A DNA stretch of 64,000 nucleotides, taken from positions 496,001 to 560,000 of the forward strand of contig NW_026515677.1 in assembly GCF_025526975.1 (NCBI RefSeq). The letters are read 5' to 3'. Every line of letters starts with the position of its first letter. Within the stretch, counting starts at the first letter, position 1. The position numbers were made by a program, and so were the translations under genes. Below, in pieces: positions 7,550 to 47,384 of this stretch. The DNA is from Fimicolochytrium jonesii. Lineage: Eukaryota. The notes beneath the pieces are model-generated. The model was not told the origin of the DNA and searched no databases. It was given only the letters and a program-made list of their open reading frames with translations.

Positions 7550-8154
7550 CCTTCTACCATTCTCACGAACAGCGCATCATATTCCTCATGTTGTCCAAAC
7601 CATATTATATGAAAGTGCTCCAGCAACCGCGGTTGGCCACCACCAAACACCCGCAAAAGGATGAACCGGTAACCACCATATCGCCGCGATGTCGGGAAGC
7701 TGTATAAACGTTCTGCAAACCCTGCCAAAGCTTCGAAAGGATCGCTTCGATGATTGAAAATACAATCCTGATTATGGAAAAGCTGTACAACTAGGCGTCG
7801 GTAGTTTGAGATGAATGGGTCTTGGGCATGGAGAGTTTCGATGTGGTCCGTGATTTCGGGGCGGAAGGTGAAGAGTAGTTCAGACGTAACCATTCGTCCT
7901 GTAGAGTGCGCAGCGGACGGTTTCTGTCGAACTTCGTGCTCTTAAAGAGTATATCTTGCAACTCTGCGGCGCTCCTTCGTTCGAGGTCTTTGAGGTCCTG
8001 TTTGCTTGGTTGCGCCTGCATTGCTTTGGAAAAGCCTTACAAAATAACAATAAGGCATTTAATCGACGAAAATCAGTTGCCGGAAGCCCACTCACCGTGC
8101 GTGCTGCCGCTTGCTCTATTGATAACGGGAGTTTTGGTGCTAGCGAAGTATGTA

Positions 8155-8662
8155 CAGTCAGTGGACATAAAGCTGTGTGCATGCCAGATTAAGTCAGTGT
8201 CTGACGCGCGTTGCGCGACATCAACTCATCATCCTTAATCTTGGGGCATTGCGAAACCTGACCTAAATGAATGGATCTAGATCTGAATTTCGCTAATACC
8301 TAGTTGTCCCCCCATTGGCTGCGATTACGGCTTCTTCGATTGATAGGCGGTTGGTGCAGTGGCACTCTCGTTCGCAAACCTCTTAATAGTGTTCCTCACA
8401 GTATTCCTGTGAACGTGCTCCTGCCTTGCAATTTCAGATGTCGTCTTGCCTGCTATATGGAGGGCAACTATGGCTGCCCTTTTTTGTGGTGTGAGAGGTT
8501 TCCCCATAGCTGAGGTGGTGAAGATGTTGGCGTGCATTTCGCCATCACGGCTTCGTCGCTGGCTTCAATACTCAAGCTTGCGGCTCCAAAACGCGCGGTG
8601 CGCTTTGTGAAACGGTCATTGAAATCCATATGGGGTGCACACAGCTTTTTGTCCACTGACTG
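8155..8662 (-). mobile_element. Non-autonomous, internally deleted Tc1/mariner element (508 bp)
   Basis: 27-bp TIRs CAGTCAGTGGACA(A/T)AAAGCTGTGTGCA; TA at 8153-54 and 8663-64; matches the reverse complement of both ends of 45853-47219 with 859 bp missing. Confidence 0.97.
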
Positions 8663-8909
8663 TACGTTTTACTGAGGTTTGTTGGAGGGAGCGAAGAAGG
8701 GAGGAGCAGGAGCCTCAACCACGTGACGCCCTTGATTGGACGCCGCATCTGGTTCTGACATTGCCGCGGTTTCGGACATCGCACATTATACAGTAATAGT
8801 TCACGCCCACAGCTTCCGATGTCCATTGGAAGCGGCATACGGCATAACCTTCGATAGGGTAAATACAAAAAGCTAGAGTACTGTCGTTGGAGTCCCCCCG
8901 CCTCTACAT

Positions 8910-39365: not shown

Positions 39366-39475
39366 GAGGCCTCAGGCGACCTTACATGCTTGATATTTAC
39401 TACAAGTTGCCATCATCGGCGATGCCTCCGGCAGATGTACAATGATGTGGATGGCAGATAACCAGCACGGAAAAT
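39366..39475 (-). ncRNA. Putative Fanzor omegaRNA scaffold
   Basis: Starts ~20 nt after the Fanzor stop with TTTTCCGTGCTGGTT; nested stems 39461-69/39385-94 and 39450-56/39408-14, hairpin 39423-33; position expected for an omegaRNA. Confidence 0.6.
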
Positions 39476-39495: not shown

Positions 39496-42400
39496 CTACC
39501 GGTTACGGGAAAATGCGTCTGGTCTGCGGCCATTGCCAAACACCACCGAACGCACAATGGAGAGGAAATTCTTGGTGCTCAGGACGTCCCGATTGTGCAC
39601 TCTCATCCGTAGTCGTAGTGGTCGTCTTCCAGGAATCTCAAATGGCGTCCAGTCTTCGTTGATACATTCGGGGTTGGGGCAACCCACCAATCCATGGACG
39701 TATTCCATTCTTCCCCTTCTAGCTTGCCACGGCCGACATGACAGCCGCCGTCGGATGTTTTTCTTCACACTGCCATGGCAGTCTGGGCCACGGACGACGT
39801 TCAATACTCATCCAGCAGGTAGCATGGAATGCCGTTTCTCGCAAAGAGTGTGCGGAATCTGATTTCCATGATGAGTTAGCATATTAAAATACATAAAAAA
39901 CAACGATGGTCACTCACCCCTTGGTCTTTGATGACTCCTGAAAGCGCATTGTTTTTCCAGCGTCGCTCCAATCACCCAGGATGACCGAAAAATGCTTTCC
40001 ATACCGGTGTTGCATGTTCTTAATGAGCTTGCTCTCAGACTTTTGCCGCAGTGAGAACGCCTTGAATCTGCAAGCGACGTGAATCTCATCCCGGTGTTAT
40101 GGACGACGCGTCCATACCATGCGCTTACCTCATGACAGCATCCCAACAGTCAGTCAATGTCAATTCCCTGTCAAAACCTGACATCTGCCAAACCTCGCAG
40201 CCGCACGCAGCCGCGCTACCCCACACCTGCCACTGCCTTCATTTCTCCACGCAGCCGCACGTAGCCACACCTCCCAACACTCGGCGCTTACAAACCCTTC
40301 TCCATACTTCCCCACGTACCCGCCCACAGCCTCAGCGTAGCCACCCCATCCCCAGTCTTCTGTTTCTATGCTTCCCCACCCTTGGCGCTTCTCTTGGCTT
40401 CCCTCTCATTCCGTACCCTTCTGCTTCCCCACGCTTCCCCAGCCTTCCCAGAAAAACATAAATAGCCGCCTCCCCTGAGCTCCCCACTTCCTGATCCCCC
40501 AGCAGATCAACACCAGTTCTTCCTAGTCTTGTTCTAGTTCTTGTTTCGGTCTGAATACCATTACCTGTCAACAACCTGCACCACAAGTCGCCTCTATTTC
40601 CATCGGCTCCGCCCATTCATAACACCCGGTAAAACTCATCCAGGGCGAGATCTTGAATATGGATGTCAGCCCATGTTTACCCAAATTTGAAGACGATACA
40701 TGATACATCATACCTGCATGTATGTGATCCACAATGAACGCTGAGAACGCCTCGATGTTCATGCTCTTGTGCGATGTAATCTGTGATTCCATCTCAGCAA
40801 CGCCAGCATTGATCTTCCGCTCTGTCATGTCTCTCCGAAAGTACCACGACTTTGTCTTGACCGCCCGTTGATTGGATGTGTATCTGGTCTGGGGTGGTGC
40901 ATTGTGAGAACGCTGCAACGGAATGTCGCCGCAATGGGGATGGTGGGCGGAGACGGGGGGCTGGGGGGCGGAGACAGGGTTGGCCTCGACACCGTCATGC
41001 AGGTCATCAACATGGGCCACGCGACGAGCGATATGACGCGCGACGGCGACAAGCAAACCAACCGCGGCCGCTCTCTCATTGGCAGCGTTCCCATCGACAG
41101 CTCCGTGCTCGTCCAACTCTATCAACGAACTCCTTGCCCAGATCCGCAAGGATTCTTGCCCAGATTCGTTGCCCGTGTGTGCAAACAGGGGAACCACCCC
41201 TTCCAAGTCAAAGTCCGCAAACACCTCCGCACCATCTTCCGCAAAGTAGAGGGTTGGGGGGGGGGGGGGGGGGGGGATGGTGGGGACAGCAGGGCAGTAG
41301 TAATCAACTGAAACTTACCAAAATGGCCGCTCCTTCTCAATATCTCGACAGAACAGGAGGTCACGCTTGCCCGGATCAATGCAGACGATGTTTGGAGCCT
41401 CCCGTAGTTTGGCGATGTGGTGCTCAAAATACAACTGCTTGACTTCTTCCCGCATTTGGGCCTTGCTGCGCTTCCGGGCCCGATGCCCATACTTGAGCCC
41501 TGGCTTCTTGAAGTGGATGGTAACGGAATACCCGTCGGTGCTAATTGACCCATCGAACTTGAGACCAAGCTTCTTTCGATGTTTGAAGACCTTGTCCTAT
41601 AATCCGTCATTCAGCGACGTAATCTGATTGAAATAAGCACATAAGGATAGAGACTTACATTCACGTTGATAAACTGCCCCCACAGCTCCCGCTTGCGTTC
41701 ATCAGTGAGTTTCCCCATGCGACGTCGGCCAACATCCAGGATATGAGTGCCTAGGATCAGCGTGTCGATCCGAACAGATGACCGGATTCGAGATTTGCGC
41801 AGTGGGATAGCGGAAAACAGCCGCATTCCACGGCGCTCATAGAGGCGTGAGAGCTCACAATAGGCACCTGTGGTGAGACAGGAGTGGACCATGATTAGAC
41901 AAAAGAGGAAGCCAGGGGGAGGTGGGGGGGGGGGGGGCGAAGGGGGCGAGCGGTTACGTCGACGCCGTGGCGGTGGGCAAGAGCATCGGCCGTGCCCCGG
42001 GCCGCTGTGCGCGCACTGGGGGCGTCGTTGAGGCGGGGGAGGAAGGGGGGAGAAGGGGGGGGGCCGCAGGAGCCAAGCGTGCGGGCGCCCCAGGGGCGAC
42101 AGCGCATCGCAAACCACGTTGGCCGGGGTCCGGGCAGGCAGCCACTCGGCCAGGTCGGCATACCAAGCGTGGCACTGCACAGCCACACACGAGCCTGGGG
42201 GGGGGGGTGAATATACAGGATGCAACTCACCTAAATATGGCATTGCATCCACCGCAAGGCTGTACGCAAGCGGCTCATCCTGGGGAGGACACAGAGCCCA
42301 TAGCTCGTCGAGGACAGTCCGCTCAAGTCGTGTGAGGCGCGCAAACTCCTCTTCGGTTGGAAACTCTTCAAACGTCCCAAATTTTGTAAATTGACGGACC

Positions 42401-43367
42401 CGCTGATAATACTCTCTCCGCTGCGCTCGGTTGACTCTGGCTCTCCAGAGATGCAGTGCGACTTGCTTCAAACCAATCCTTTCGTTGATGTAGCGCAGAA
42501 GCATTTGCATGAAATGCTCTTGTACGTTGACTTTGAGGTTTGTGAGGATGCTCTGAGCCGTGTATGCTGCTGTCTGTTGGCAATTTTGCATGCGTATGGA
42601 GGCGAATCCGTGAACATCACAGTGGTCTTGAACCCATGGACGCAACTCTTGCGCGATGACCGGATTGCCGTTGTAGCCTGGATTGTTGAGCAGCTCAAAC
42701 ATCACACTGATGTGCTTGTCAGTGATGTCCGGGAAATCGTGCAGAGGATGATCAGCTGCGGTGGGCATTGTAGTCAGGACATTGTTGTATGGGAAATATA
42801 CAGTGTAGTGTACGCCAAAAACTCACCAAGGTAGTACTTGAGGAAGAAGGTGGTGTGGCGCGCAAGGATGTGAACATTGCCGATGGATGTTGTCAGGCGC
42901 TCCCTTTGAACTTGATTCTGATGATTCTGATTATGGATTTGAGGAAGGGAAATCTTGGTGCAGGCATGTGTCTGCTGGCGGCGTCGTTGAACGGGTGGTG
43001 GTGGCGGGGGCTCATACGCCAGGGATCCACCCGGTGTGCTGGGAAAACGGAAAGGGATGGGAGCTGGGAGGTTCAACGGATGCTGCAGACCCCTGTCGAC
43101 GAGTGAAAGCCCTCGATGCTGGTGCTGCCCATCGTCATCGCCGGAACTCTCGCTGACCATGTCTGCAATGGCTTTGGGCAAGTTGCGATGGATAGACGGT
43201 GGGAACTCAAATTGCGGGTGTGATTGCAATGGTGTCTGCACAGTTGGCAGACGTATGGGCAACCGCGGGGTAGCCGGAGCAACCTTCCTCCTCTTCCGCC
43301 GTGGTGTGGTTGCTCCAGTAAAGATGCCACACCACAGGTGCCCCTGGAGCGCCTGGTCTGATGACAT
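39496..43367 (-). pseudogene. Fanzor1 (eukaryotic TnpB-like RuvC nuclease), 7 exons, disrupted
   Basis: Exons 43367-42827, 42755-42231, 41867-41659, 41596-41319, 40883-40714, 40651-39918 (LTR removed), 39858-39496; motifs FDGSISTDGYSV, IVCIDPGKRDLL, YTSNQR, ILGDWS, LLDEY.TSS, (C)PDC...HGLVGCPNPEC, HNRDVLSTKN. Confidence 0.93.
40095..40624 (+). mobile_element. Solo LTR (530 bp) inserted in Fanzor exon 6
   Basis: Ends TGTTATG...CATAACA; perfect 5-bp TSD CCCGG at 40090-94 and 40625-29; TATA-like CATAAATAG at ~40458 suggests orientation; removal restores the Fanzor frame. Confidence 0.9.
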
Positions 43368-43977
43368 GTTGGGTGTGCTGTGCCTTTTGCGTGCCTGCTA
43401 GAGATGAGGTGTATGCAGGTGATTGCCGTGATGGATTGCCGGGAAGGAAGGGGGTTGAAGGAGTAGAGTGGGGATCCCCACGTTTTTTACACGCGTGTAA
43501 AGGATGTGGGGCAGCTCTGGGGTTGATTGTGGAACTCGTTACTTTATTCCCCTTCACACATTGGGAGCCGCCGGAGGCGAGTGACGGCTATGGCAGCAAA
43601 GTACAGTATGTCAAGTTGGCAAGCGCTACACTGCGCTATATAGTAACCCTCCCTACGCAGCCCAACCACAGTGATTCGCAAAAGCCTAAGCTATGTAAAT
43701 GTGGGAATCAATATGCACTTATAGGGAGATTGATGAATTGCACGCATTTTTTCACCCATAATCATCGGATCTCAGTAGAGATGGAGGTGGGCGGCGTGAA
43801 GTAATGAAGTCTTCTTCAGAAAGCAGTTCCATCATGGTTGTGGCTTCATCACCGGTGAGCGTAGTGCCGCTAGACCAACGTATTGCTAGAGCAACATATT
43901 GGATGCTGATGCCTTGGGGCTTGAATGCAGTGCTCAGGCTGAAAGAGTTGTCGCCTTTGTTCTCGACTATGACAGCG

Positions 43978-44171
43978 AAGCGATTGCGGAAGGCGCGAGA
44001 GCGTACCGCGAGTGCCCAAATCCAGGCTGCACCTCAAGCGATTGCAGGAGTCGAGAGCGTACCGCGAGTGCCCAAATCCAGGCTGCACCTCAAGCGATTG
44101 CAGGAGTCGAGAGCGTACCGCGAGACTGCCCCTATTCCGGGCTGCCCCAAGCGATTGCGGAAGGCGAGAGC
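43978..44171. repeat. 56-bp minisatellite, ~3.3 copies
   Basis: Unit CGAGAGCGTACCGCGAGTGCCCAAATCCAGGCTGCACCTCAAGCGATTGCAGGAGT at 43996 and 44052 (identical), diverged copy at 44108. Confidence 0.92.
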
Positions 44172-44426: not shown

Positions 44427-44590
44427 AGCGGATGTGGAAGAACAGATGAAGAAAACCTGCGGCTATGGGACAGCGTAGTAACAAGGCTGGCCACGGCGGC
44501 GTTGCGAAGTGCAGGTCCAGGGCTGGCCAGAAGTGCAGTACCGTATATTGGGTACATTTTGACTGTTGGATGATGGTCAGAAGTGGTTAA

Positions 44591-44891
44591 TTCCCAAATA
44601 AGGGAATTCTTCTGGTTCACTTGCCGCCGTGAAGGGTGGCCAGGGCTGGCCAGGGCACCGGATATTGCGCGCGTCGTGGATCAGTGTACCAGCGAAGGGT
44701 TTGGCCAGATGAAGTGGAAGGCTCTAATAAATTGGCCAGATGAAGTAGGGCTCCAAAGGCGCGCGTGAGAAATACACTTCATTTGGCCAGATGCTCTAAT
44801 ATTAATACACTTCACTGGCCAGATGAAGCGCGCGTGAGAAATACACACTCCCCAGCGGCAAATGTACCAGAAGGATTCCCTTATTTGGGAA
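44591..44891. mobile_element. MITE-like element with 37-bp inverted repeats
   Basis: 44591-44627 vs 44855-44891 are reverse complements with 3 mismatches; interior has repeated TGGCCAGATG and GCGCGTGAGAAATACAC motifs; no clear TSD. Confidence 0.6.
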
Positions 44892-45076
44892 GAATCCAGG
44901 GAGATGTAAAAGCAAGGAAATCGAAATCGGATGTGCCGCCGCAACCCCAAGACATGTCCCGCTGTCCCGGTCGCGCTGACACCCACACAAACCGACACAC
45001 ACAGACGGCCCTTGGCCAGAAGGCTCTAATAACGTTAGTAAGCTTGCCAGGGCTCCAAAGGCGTGCGTGAGAAATA

Positions 45077-45445
45077 CAGTGCCGTTCATAAAGCAAGGCC
45101 GCTGTCAATTTGATTCACCGGCCCCCTGAACGCGCGTCTAGTATATCTAGTGAATCCTCCTCTAGCTGCTATGACGGCCGCTATACGCCGGGGCATGCTC
45201 GACACAAGGTTTTCTAGCACATCTAGCTCAATATCCTGAAATGTCTGCTGTGCAATGGCCTCTAGCTGCTCTAAAGTTGCGGGACGTTGTCTATAAATGC
45301 ATTTCTTGAGCATGGACCACAGGTTTTCTATCGGATTCAAGTCTGGGCTGATTGCAGGCCAGTTTGCCAGTACCTCAATGCCGTGGAGATCAAAAAATCC
45401 TTCCCTGCAAGTTTTGCGATGGGGTGGAGCGTTATCCTGGGAAGA
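45077..45445 (-). mobile_element. 5'-truncated second Tc1-family element (transposase C-terminus plus one terminus)
   Basis: QDNAPPH...WPAISPDLNPIENLW...SMPRRIAAVIAARGGFTRY; terminus TA|CAGTGCCGTTCA at 45075-77; sequence upstream of QDN is unrelated. Confidence 0.88.
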
Positions 45446-45594
45446 AACACTCTGAGCGTCACCGCCAATCCAAAAAGGAGAGAAACAAGGTACACACCTG
45501 CATGAAAACAAAACCACGCTGCTCACCCTGAATATCAGAGTAGAAGGGGATGAGATTCTCGGAGAGATATTCCTGGTATGCTTCCGAGTTGAGT

Positions 45595-45691
45595 CTAACC
45601 CTAACCCTAACCCTAACACTAGGGTTTTGAGGTTTGGAATTGCGAGATGGTAGGTCAAGAACCCTAACCCTAACCCTAACCCTAACCCTAA
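45595..45691. repeat. Interstitial telomeric repeats (CCCTAA/TTAGGG), two tracts
   Basis: ~4 units at 45595-45618 and 5 perfect units at 45662-45691. Confidence 0.9.
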
Positions 45692-45852
45692 GTCAGAGCA
45701 GATGTGGTAAGAAGGTAAGAAGGAATCAGAGGGCAGCGACGCGAGGGGAAGGTAAGAAGGCTGGTAAGAAGGAATCAGAGGGAATATGGGGTCACGTGGG
45801 GGGACACGGACGTCGCGGACATGGATTAGAGTAAAGAATGAGGAAGGATGTA

Positions 45853-47219
45853 CAGTCAGTGGACAAAAAGCTGTGTGCACCCCATATGGATTTCAATGAC
45901 CGTTTCACAAAGCGCACCGCGCGTTTTGGAGCCGCAAGCTTGAGTATTGAAGCCAGCGACGAAGCCGTGATGGCGAAATGCACGCCAACATCTTCACCAC
46001 CTCAGCTATGGGGAAACCTCTCACACCACAAAAAAGGGCAGCCATAGTTGCCCTCCATATAGCAGGCAAGACGACATCTGAAATTGCAAGGCAGGAGCAC
46101 GTTCACAGGAATACTGTGAGGAACACTATTAAGAGGTTTGCGAACGAGAGTGCCACTGCACCAACCGCCTATCAATCGAAGAAGCCAACAGGAAGACCAG
46201 CTAAGTACCAGCCTTCTGACGATGATTTGGCTGCCTTCCGCAGTATTGTTGTTGCTGACAGTAGCACTCGGGAGAAAACACTAAAACAGATCACTTTTGA
46301 ATTCACACAGCTCACCGGACTCCAGGTGTCTGCAAAAACAGTGCGTCGCTACCTACGGGACCTGCTCTATCTCACCTCGCGTTTCAAGGTCCGAAAGCCA
46401 CTATTGACAGAGGACCATAAAGCAGCACGCCTTGCATTTGCACTGCAGCACCAAGACTGGACGGAAGCGGACTGGTCTCGTGTTTTCTGGACTGATGAGA
46501 CGTCCTTTGAAATTGGCTGGGTACCTAAAATGCGGTGCTGGCGCTTACGAACTGAACGTTTTCATCCCAATTGCATCCAGGGCACCAGGAAGAGTGGACG
46601 AAAAACATTCATGTATTGGGGAGCATTCATTGGAAATGCAGTAGGTCCAATGAAAGAGATGCAGCGTGTTCAGCGAGAGGGTCAAAACCGTGGAGGGATT
46701 AACTCTCCTGCCTATGTGCAACATCTTACTGCTAACATGTTGCCGATGTGGCGGAATTTAGAGATTTTTCTTCCCAATCCTCTCTTCATGCAGGACAACG
46801 CCCCTATTCATACATCGGCTGAAACTCGACAGTTCTTTGATGAACACGGCATTGAGCTTCTTCCCTGGCCAGCGCAGAGTCCAGATCTCAATCCGATTGA
46901 GAATCTGTGGGCAATGCTCAAACGGAAGGTATCGAAAGCGAACCCTACCCCTGGAATGTTGGACAACGTTGTGCAAACTATATGGCCCACAATGCAGCCG
47001 CATCTTGATGCATTGACACGGTCAATGCCATCAAGAATGGCAGCCGTAATCGCAGCCAATGGGGGGACAACTAGGTATTAGCGAAATTCAGATCTAGATC
47101 CATTCATTTAGGTCAGGTTTCGCAATGCCCCAAGATTAAGGATGATGAGTTGATGTCGCGCAACGCGCGTCAGACACTGACTTAATCTGGCATGCACACA
47201 GCTTTATGTCCACTGACTG
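45853..47219 (+). mobile_element. Intact autonomous Tc1/mariner transposon (1367 bp)
   Basis: 27-bp TIRs with 1 mismatch; TA TSD at 45851-52 and 47220-21; uninterrupted transposase ORF. Confidence 0.98.
45978..47081 (+). CDS. Tc1-family DD34E transposase (start may be ATG 46008)
   Basis: N-terminal HTH plus GRP motif; VFWTDE; QDNAPIH with 34 residues to the E of SPDLNPIE; ends GGTTRY*. Confidence 0.97.
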   Translation: MHANIFTTSAMGKPLTPQKRAAIVALHIAGKTTSEIARQEHVHRNTVRNTIKRFANESATAPTAYQSKKPTGRPAKYQPSDDDLAAFRSIVVADSSTREKTLKQITFEFTQLTGLQVSAKTVRRYLRDLLYLTSRFKVRKPLLTEDHKAARLAFALQHQDWTEADWSRVFWTDETSFEIGWVPKMRCWRLRTERFHPNCIQGTRKSGRKTFMYWGAFIGNAVGPMKEMQRVQREGQNRGGINSPAYVQHLTANMLPMWRNLEIFLPNPLFMQDNAPIHTSAETRQFFDEHGIELLPWPAQSPDLNPIENLWAMLKRKVSKANPTPGMLDNVVQTIWPTMQPHLDALTRSMPSRMAAVIAANGGTTRY

Positions 47220-47384
47220 TACAGATGAAGTAGTGGGAGCCTACATTATGTGCTATCTACGGGCGCGATCTACAGTACATAAGTTTCACGCGTAAGCCGT
47301 TCAGGCATCTCCTCGAAGAAAAGACAAATGCTTCGAAGCGCAATCGGTCGACAATCGAGCGCGCTGGTGAGCGCACTCATTGCG

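Follow-up and report, generated by a model that had tools for sequence, protein, structure and literature searches.

On contig NW_026515677.1 of Fimicolochytrium jonesii, a 64-kb stretch of DNA (hereafter the window) carries a gene of seven exons and six introns on its minus strand, at 39496..43367. We read this gene as a dead copy of a six-intron F. jonesii Fanzor1 family that likely spread as non-autonomous DNA-transposon cargo and whose unbroken members would probably work as RNA-guided nucleases, a reading to which we assign a probability of roughly 0.8. Fanzor1 membership, the seven-exon model and the assignment of motifs are supported by sequence, paralogs and predicted structure. The copy itself is a pseudogene, unable to encode cleavage dependent on a guide or a target-adjacent motif (TAM), with stops at codons 518 and 660. 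The value of the locus lies in its sister copies and not in the dead gene, which serves as a pointer to a family with 45% identity to SpuFz1, the Fanzor of solved structure that is used for editing.

Identity and structure of the gene

The exon pieces were searched singly against solved structures. SpuFz1 of Spizellomyces punctatus (8GKH) was the best match for exons 2+3 (E 5.8e-36), exon 4 (1.6e-17), exon 5 (1.6e-5), exon 6b (3.3e-16) and exon 7 (1.1e-15), in order along the chain, while exon 1 alone gave no Fanzor match among these structures. The alignment of exons 2+3 skips intron 2 precisely, passing from chain residue 636 to 639. Judged by sequence, the collinear match of the gene pieces to SpuFz1 is far beyond chance. 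A gene model carrying X at three breaks was used for comparison and showed 86.8% identity to P0049, an unbroken sister model of 761 aa, 52.2% to Gaertneriomyces P0016 and 45.4% to SpuFz1 (615 columns). The last value makes it a close relative of SpuFz1, not the divergent Fanzor described in an earlier note made from the sequence alone.

The catalytic residues of SpuFz1, reported as D383, E541 and D606 (PMC11423790), are matched 3/3 in the dead copy, and the same residues are present in all sister rows covering them. Six residues separate the catalytic E from the first zinc-finger cysteine position, which corresponds to the rearranged RuvC-II, with E about six residues ahead of the zinc finger, described as a Fanzor1 feature (PMC13565253). 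The Bao-Jurka motif, given as D-X(125,275)-[TS][TS]XX-C4 finger-X(5,50)-RD (PMC3627910), is present in the dead copy (X permitted at the frameshifted first cysteine) and in the sister models P0005 and P0050.

The structural comparison with SpuFz1 and TnpB proposed in the earlier note was run on P0005, folded from a 123-row alignment with a predicted local distance difference test score (pLDDT) of 92.4 and a predicted template modelling score (pTM) of 0.87. In Foldseek, this predicted fold matched SpuFz1 9CEY with a template modelling (TM) score of 0.86 and a root-mean-square deviation of 3.1 Å. Its top seven matches were all Fanzor1 (TM 0.57-0.86), against TM 0.22-0.28 for Fanzor2 and TnpB (Fanzor2 9B0L, 0.22; TnpB 8H1J, 0.25), which places it with Fanzor1 and its enlarged REC/WED fold. 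It supersedes an earlier, poor fold of P0049 from 24 rows (pLDDT 57, deviation 22 Å to SpuFz1). The exon matches, the catalytic triad and the sister-copy fold agree with the Fanzor1 identity that the note had proposed from motif order.

The gene runs from an ATG at 43367 to a terminal TAG at 39498-96 (Table 1). All six introns have GT...AG ends at the coordinates given in the earlier note, and the three RuvC codons (D, E and D) were located where it had placed them. Once the insert in exon 6 and one target-site copy are removed, the exons total 2285 nt; with the absent base restored, they total 2286 nt or 761 codons, as the note had calculated, but its reading of 761 aa plus stop overlooked two in-frame TGA stops. 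A branch-point-like motif was found in the final 45 nt of four of the six introns, and the simple pattern fails for introns 3 and 4. The intron density is 2.6 per kb of coding sequence. Towards the end of intron 4, alternative AG acceptors were inspected by eye and dropped, because 18 of 29 paralog models span the junction adopted here. Introns 2 and 4 exceed the others in length by a factor of 5-7, are rich in GC with poly-C tracts, and have lengths that are multiples of three; intron 2 contains no stop codon in the coding frame.

The note had further regarded the gene as hidden from screens based on open reading frames (ORFs). The RuvC-I exon is indeed too short for a 150-aa ORF list, and a Pfam scan detected neither SpuFz1 nor P0049. 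Exons 1-4, including RuvC-I, are nevertheless already public as gene model EV422DRAFT_619774 (P0001), whose first 517 residues are identical and which ends inside intron 4.

Table 1. Features of the Fanzor1 locus and its candidate guide RNA (positions in the window)
Feature	Position	Strand	Description
Exon 1	42827..43367	-	ATG; ~125-aa family-specific low-complexity extension with PRRKRRKV, like a nuclear localisation signal (NLS); then start of Fanzor core
Intron 1	42756..42826	-	71 nt, phase 1, SpuFz1 residue 65
Exon 2	42231..42755	-	REC domain; at TAM-contact positions QQ retained, N133 equivalent is A
Intron 2	41868..42230	-	363 nt, 70% GC, phase 1, coding frame open, SpuFz1 residue 244
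Exon 3	41659..41867	-	End of REC, and WED
Intron 3	41597..41658	-	62 nt, phase 0, SpuFz1 residue 311
Exon 4	41319..41596	-	WED strands, RuvC-I (D 41377-75, SpuFz1 D383); last two bases begin premature TGA
Intron 4	40884..41318	-	435 nt, 61% GC, poly-C tract, phase 2, SpuFz1 residue 401
Exon 5	40714..40883	-	Region of RuvC helical insertion
Intron 5	40652..40713	-	62 nt, phase 1, SpuFz1 residue 458
Exon 6	39918..40651	-	Interrupted by solo LTR (long terminal repeat) after 27 nt; RQKSES and GDWS motifs
Solo-LTR-like insert	40095..40624	+	530 nt, TG...CA ends, 7-bp inverted termini, 5-bp target-site duplication
Intron 6	39859..39917	-	59 nt, phase 2, SpuFz1 residue 524
Exon 7	39496..39858	-	RuvC-II E 39809-07, TGA 39803, frameshift ~39788, three remaining cysteines, RuvC-III D 39588-86, TAG
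Candidate omegaRNA scaffold	39401..39475	-	75 nt (length by analogy to SpuFz1), starts 21 nt after stop; 3' end presumed
Putative 15-nt guide	39386..39400	-	Presumed, if scaffold end is right; lies in 216-nt gap before convergent PPR gene

Lesions, sister copies and shared introns

Four lesions were counted in the copy, not the two breaks (LTR and 1 nt) that had been noticed: a 530-nt solo LTR, a 1-nt frameshift and two in-frame TGA stops. The first TGA is codon 518, created across the exon 4/5 junction, and the second is codon 660, two codons past the catalytic E; the frameshift falls on the first zinc-finger cysteine. Both stop positions carry arginine in sister copies, so the stops fit C-to-T decay at CpG sites. 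The insert, read from 40624 to 40095, has the termini TGTTATG/CATAACA and a 5-bp duplication, CCGGG. Its anatomy, with these ends and duplication and no internal retroelement gene, points to a solo LTR, the ends being what we take to be typical of LTRs; no further copy was found within the window. Among six copies compared, the dead copy has the most private changes (23 in 622 columns), five of them where six outgroup rows are invariant.

The protein search yielded 40 relatives, of which 19 came from F. jonesii, one from Gaertneriomyces and 18 from Spizellomyces punctatus, with two environmental sequences; PF26935 appeared as a precomputed accession among its results. A cluster look-up added 11 further named F. 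jonesii models, among them P0049. The family thus comprises 30 named F. jonesii models, 29 besides the dead copy's own, spread over contigs of diverse length. Since some of these models may be pieces of one locus, ~30 should be taken as an upper guide to the number of named copies. The earlier note had suggested rebuilding the ancestral sequence, which is unnecessary because the unbroken 761-aa paralog is already annotated. Its proposed check for intact paralogs, carried out on proteins, gave P0049 and showed that each splice junction, as well as the LTR site, is spanned without gaps by 12-18 of the 29 named models. In a wider set of 37 other-copy models (the 29 named and 8 unnamed at >=69% identity), RuvC-I, II and III together with both cysteine pairs were present in 11; five of these 11 also have the REC motif, and one (P0049) also has the NLS-like motif.

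In a quick tree, from which P0039, P0046 and P0048 were omitted, 14 F. jonesii rows form a short-branched star, separate from the S. punctatus rows and sister to Gaertneriomyces. A 30-row FastTree tree was concordant and placed Phlyctochytrium arcticum nearby; both trees were built without Fanzor2 or TnpB rows. Gaertneriomyces sp. HDU85_005947 (P0016), 52% identical, is sister to the F. jonesii rows with support of 100 and 99. Together with P. arcticum (P0056 cluster), it represents the nearest outside species, and both lack the N-terminal extension. The short-branched star is as would be expected for a transposon burst followed by decay. Private changes range from 0.9 to 3.7% per copy, with one third to over half of them non-conservative.

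Apparently full-length Fanzor1 proteins of 660 and 637 aa were also observed in P. arcticum and two Gaertneriomyces genomes (P0056, P0200-P0204, P0016, P0066). Three P. arcticum models of 660 aa are near-identical and may be young copies. Among viral contigs, 40 pattern matches included no relatives; of 251 stretches from metagenome contigs, two proved to be relatives, each on a contig of <1.3 kb without flanks. One of these (L001), 36% identical and frameshifted, has no large gap across the positions of introns 2-6.

Every intron of the dead copy, six in all, has a counterpart in one or more other copies whose gene models continue into matching sequence. Such read-through, matching 3 to 8 of 8 residues, was observed at 9 of 12 intron ends tested, so the introns are family-wide among the F. 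jonesii copies. As copies retain their introns, they would have spread through DNA and not through spliced RNA. SpuFz1, described as a single 1917-nt ORF, is intronless (Saito Supplementary Table 1; PMC10432273, PMC3627910). Several environmental relatives that branch more deeply (598-636 aa) come from contigs of just 2.1-2.9 kb, which have no room for many introns, although assembled transcripts may be among these contigs. Because sister copies share the introns while SpuFz1 has none, a gain on the line to F. jonesii is the simplest and likely reading. An origin from Introners found no support, since a comparison of introns 2 and 4 showed only poly-C tracts in common. An intron-rich Fanzor is not in itself new: intron-containing Fanzors, with up to ~9.6 introns per kb, have been published (PMC10530073).

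N-terminal extension, guide RNA and activity

Residues 1-125 had no match in 138 non-F. jonesii hits, and residues 1-142 of P0049 are predicted to be disordered (pLDDT <50 in the 24-row fold). The motif PR[RQ]KRRKV, which resembles a classical nuclear localisation signal, was present in 14 of 17 models picked for having the N-terminal part. Among copies, conservation of the extension (78-89%) is close to that of the core (82-89%). Of the six SpuFz1 residues listed as TAM contacts in PMC10432273, where N133 is described as contacting T and A of CATA, four are identical; N133 is replaced by alanine in 10/10 sister rows covering it, and the loop holding R96 is shortened. Since N133 is alanine, the TAM of the F. 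jonesii family is likely other than CATA. The ~125-aa front extension and the change of N133 to alanine are new details of the family.

By analogy with SpuFz1, a 75-nt guide-RNA scaffold probably follows the stop, with support for its first stem-loop only. A 19-nt pattern condensed from five S. punctatus omegaRNAs (Saito Supplementary Table 3) matched the window a single time, on the coding strand at 39474-39456, with 2 mismatches and 22 nt past the stop. The first stem-loop (39474-39447) resembles that of SpuFz1, with a bulged stem of 6-7 bp against the 7 bp expected of a Fanzor1 omegaRNA. The candidate ends in TA, and its minimum-energy fold, holding 10% of the ensemble, has, as in SpuFz1, a stem-loop followed by a linker of 7 nt and a second stem that closes at the end. 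Support for the first stem-loop alone fits the description of this element as the only one conserved among Fanzor1 RNAs (PMC11423790). No Rfam match was found for the candidate at E 1, and nowhere else in the window does a sequence match the putative guide with fewer than 3 mismatches.

In the proposed mechanism, an unbroken copy would give a spliced mRNA and a protein of ~761 aa, which its N-terminal signal would carry into the nucleus. An omegaRNA of ~90 nt would arise from the 3' untranslated end, with its last ~15 nt read from flanking DNA as the guide. The complex would then cut the empty insertion site beside a short TAM, and the cut would favour restoration of the element by repair, a model discussed in PMC10432273 and PMC13565253.

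Several results weigh against such a family of mobile, active nucleases and against parts of the model. For each junction, 11-17 of the 29 models do not span it, a count that pools absence with disagreement, and the paralog junctions come from automatic gene models and not from RNA reads. P0049 fails the Bao-Jurka motif because of a private change at residue 659, where the six outgroup rows do not vary, so even this full-length copy may be impaired. The 19-nt pattern matched somewhere at 3 mismatches in 17 of 100 shuffled windows (0.17 per window), and support for the match therefore rests on its position after the stop. The fold of the candidate RNA has a z of +0.32, with 120 of 200 shuffles folding as well. 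SpuFz1 RNA-contact residues are identical in the dead copy at only 7/19 positions (heteroduplex contacts, 7/10). No inverted copy of the presumed right end was found in 64 kb, the best having 6 mismatches over 20 nt and 10 over 30 nt. Finally, the sole intron-containing Fanzor for which PMC10530073 describes a test bound RNA but did not cut.

The strongest alternative, which we rate somewhat below an even chance, is that the whole family is extinct, with all copies decaying, none active, and the locus a fossil of a past burst. The star-like tree and the private, often non-conservative changes fit this account, as do the lack of inverted ends in the window and the finding that, of the 37 other-copy models, P0049 alone reaches full length with every motif and itself carries a change at an otherwise invariant column. 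Against extinction, no more than 5 of 563 columns hold a private change in P0005, none of them outgroup-invariant, and intron read-through in the annotation may account for the short models, which would then not be broken genes.

Known systems, element ends and surroundings

The Fanzor1 of this fungal order represents the founding example of the family. The closest known system is SpuFz1 and its element Spu-1 from Spizellomyces punctatus, of the same order, Spizellomycetales (PDB 8GKH, 9CEU-9CEZ; PMC10432273, PMC11423790, PMC3627910). Apart from the identity and sister-copy fold given above, the two share domain order, the catalytic D/E/D and the C4 zinc finger. Like Spu-1, the F. jonesii Fanzor is a multi-copy family with many partial copies, a candidate 5' stem-loop downstream of the stop is similar, and insertions of LTR retroelements into Fanzor genes are reported there too (PMC10432273). 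Unlike SpuFz1, the gene has six introns and ~125 extra N-terminal residues, does not retain N133 or R96, has an insertion of ~12 residues ahead of RuvC-III, and is represented here by a pseudogene. Whereas Spu-1 (2.1 kb) has 30-nt terminal inverted repeats and a CA-TA left end, no inverted repeat pair was found in 64 kb. With six introns and no inverted end copy in this stretch, the locus is not classed as a Spu-1-type element.

CrFNuc-1 of Chlamydomonas reinhardtii is likewise described as an intron-containing, multi-copy Fanzor1 with an RNA from the 3' untranslated region (PMC10530073). It differs in residing in Helitron2 elements and in showing no cleavage in a TAM screen. The next structural matches were PpFz1 (Parasitella parasitica, 9CF0-3) and GtFz1 (Guillardia theta, 9CER-T), with TM 0.71-0.74 and 0.57 and identities of 17-22% in structural alignments. 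The omegaRNAs listed for PpFz1 also have a short TCC lead-in and a TTATCG loop (Saito Supplementary Table 3). No publication on the F. jonesii Fanzor family was found in the open literature searched, and Fimicolochytrium is absent from the readable supplements of PMC10432273; the family may still be listed elsewhere, for instance in Repbase, subscription literature or the catalogue of PMC10530073. It is apparently uncatalogued, and constitutes a new member of Fanzor1, not a new kind.

Whether intron-rich Fanzors remain active could be tested directly in this family, and the natural change at a TAM-reading residue could give another TAM. The flanks of ~30 copies could define the element ends and point to the transposase, which had not been identified for Spu-1 in PMC10432273. 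If active copies with a new TAM exist, they would provide a natural SpuFz1 variant for editing and the first intron-rich Fanzor shown to cut. We advance only tentatively, as the less probable outcome, the full scenario of a recently mobile Fanzor1 transposon family in F. jonesii that gained its six introns and ~125-residue NLS-bearing front after the split from intronless Spu-1, with its best copies active and a TAM that is not CATA.

Fanzor element ends, a target-site duplication and a mobilising transposase were not found in the window. The presumed right end has no inverted copy there, which leaves three possibilities: a lost left end, a misplaced right end, or an element that lacks terminal inverted repeats. 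Upstream of the gene, a 36-nt near-palindrome (43476-43511) lies ~110 nt before the ATG, followed by three and a half 56-nt tandem repeats (43974-44171). Repeat-rich sequence at 44584-45078 and 47224-47250 includes a 55-nt inverted pair (82%) and short direct repeats, and two Tc1 elements abut repeat copies. These repeats suggest a nest inside a further element that could hold the Fanzor left end.

The older of the two Tc1 elements is a transposase fragment at 45086-45595 (-), of which only the 3' half remains (DDE_3 match, E 2.7e-8). It appears to end at about 45077, with CTG and then TA at 45079-45075 directly past the transposase stop, a sequence that we take to resemble Tc1 ends. A composite Tc1/mariner element, with this fragment as its transposase and the Fanzor as its second gene, is improbable. 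In its favour, the fragment lies 1.7 kb upstream of the Fanzor on the same strand, a TA closes the presumed scaffold, and Fanzor1 within Mariner elements has been published (PMC3627910). However, with a Tc1-like right end apparently closing right after the transposase stop, the Tc1 element would not enclose the Fanzor, and no inverted pair was found to enclose both genes. In addition, the best 120 of 1283 transposase relatives (best identity 52%) include no F. jonesii name, against ~30 Fanzor models annotated in that species, and the surroundings are a nest of repeats with a second, young Tc1. Still less credible is a domesticated, immobile host gene that might bind DNA under RNA guidance or act against transposons, for which the six introns, the core-like conservation of the extension and the lack of inverted ends in the window could speak, but which is opposed by ~30 dispersed, mostly fragmentary copies of star-like divergence, by catalytic residues retained in all rows covering them, and by the fact that equal divergence of extension and core is also expected from neutral decay.

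The coding sequence of the old transposase shows an apparent GT-AG intron of ~61 nt (45497-45437) just ahead of its DNAPPH motif. Two short TTAGGG telomere-repeat runs (45595-45702) lie exactly at its break and are possibly a telomerase-healing scar or part of an intron. Downstream of the Fanzor, the PPR gene is convergent and 216 nt from the stop. Genes with Pfam matches between 4514 and 63329 encode a Sec7-type exchange factor, a semialdehyde dehydrogenase, a questin oxidase-like protein, this PPR protein, a short-chain dehydrogenase, an anthrone oxygenase, RNA polymerase Rpb3, a bZIP factor and an APH-family phosphotransferase, all ordinary fungal genes. The young Tc1/mariner element at 45849-47223 (+) is intact, bearing one open frame of 376 codons and terminal inverted repeats of 39 nt. 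At 8151-8665 lies a copy of 515 nt with an internal deletion, whose arms (337 and 182 nt) are 100% identical to the young element, a sign of very recent Tc1 activity.

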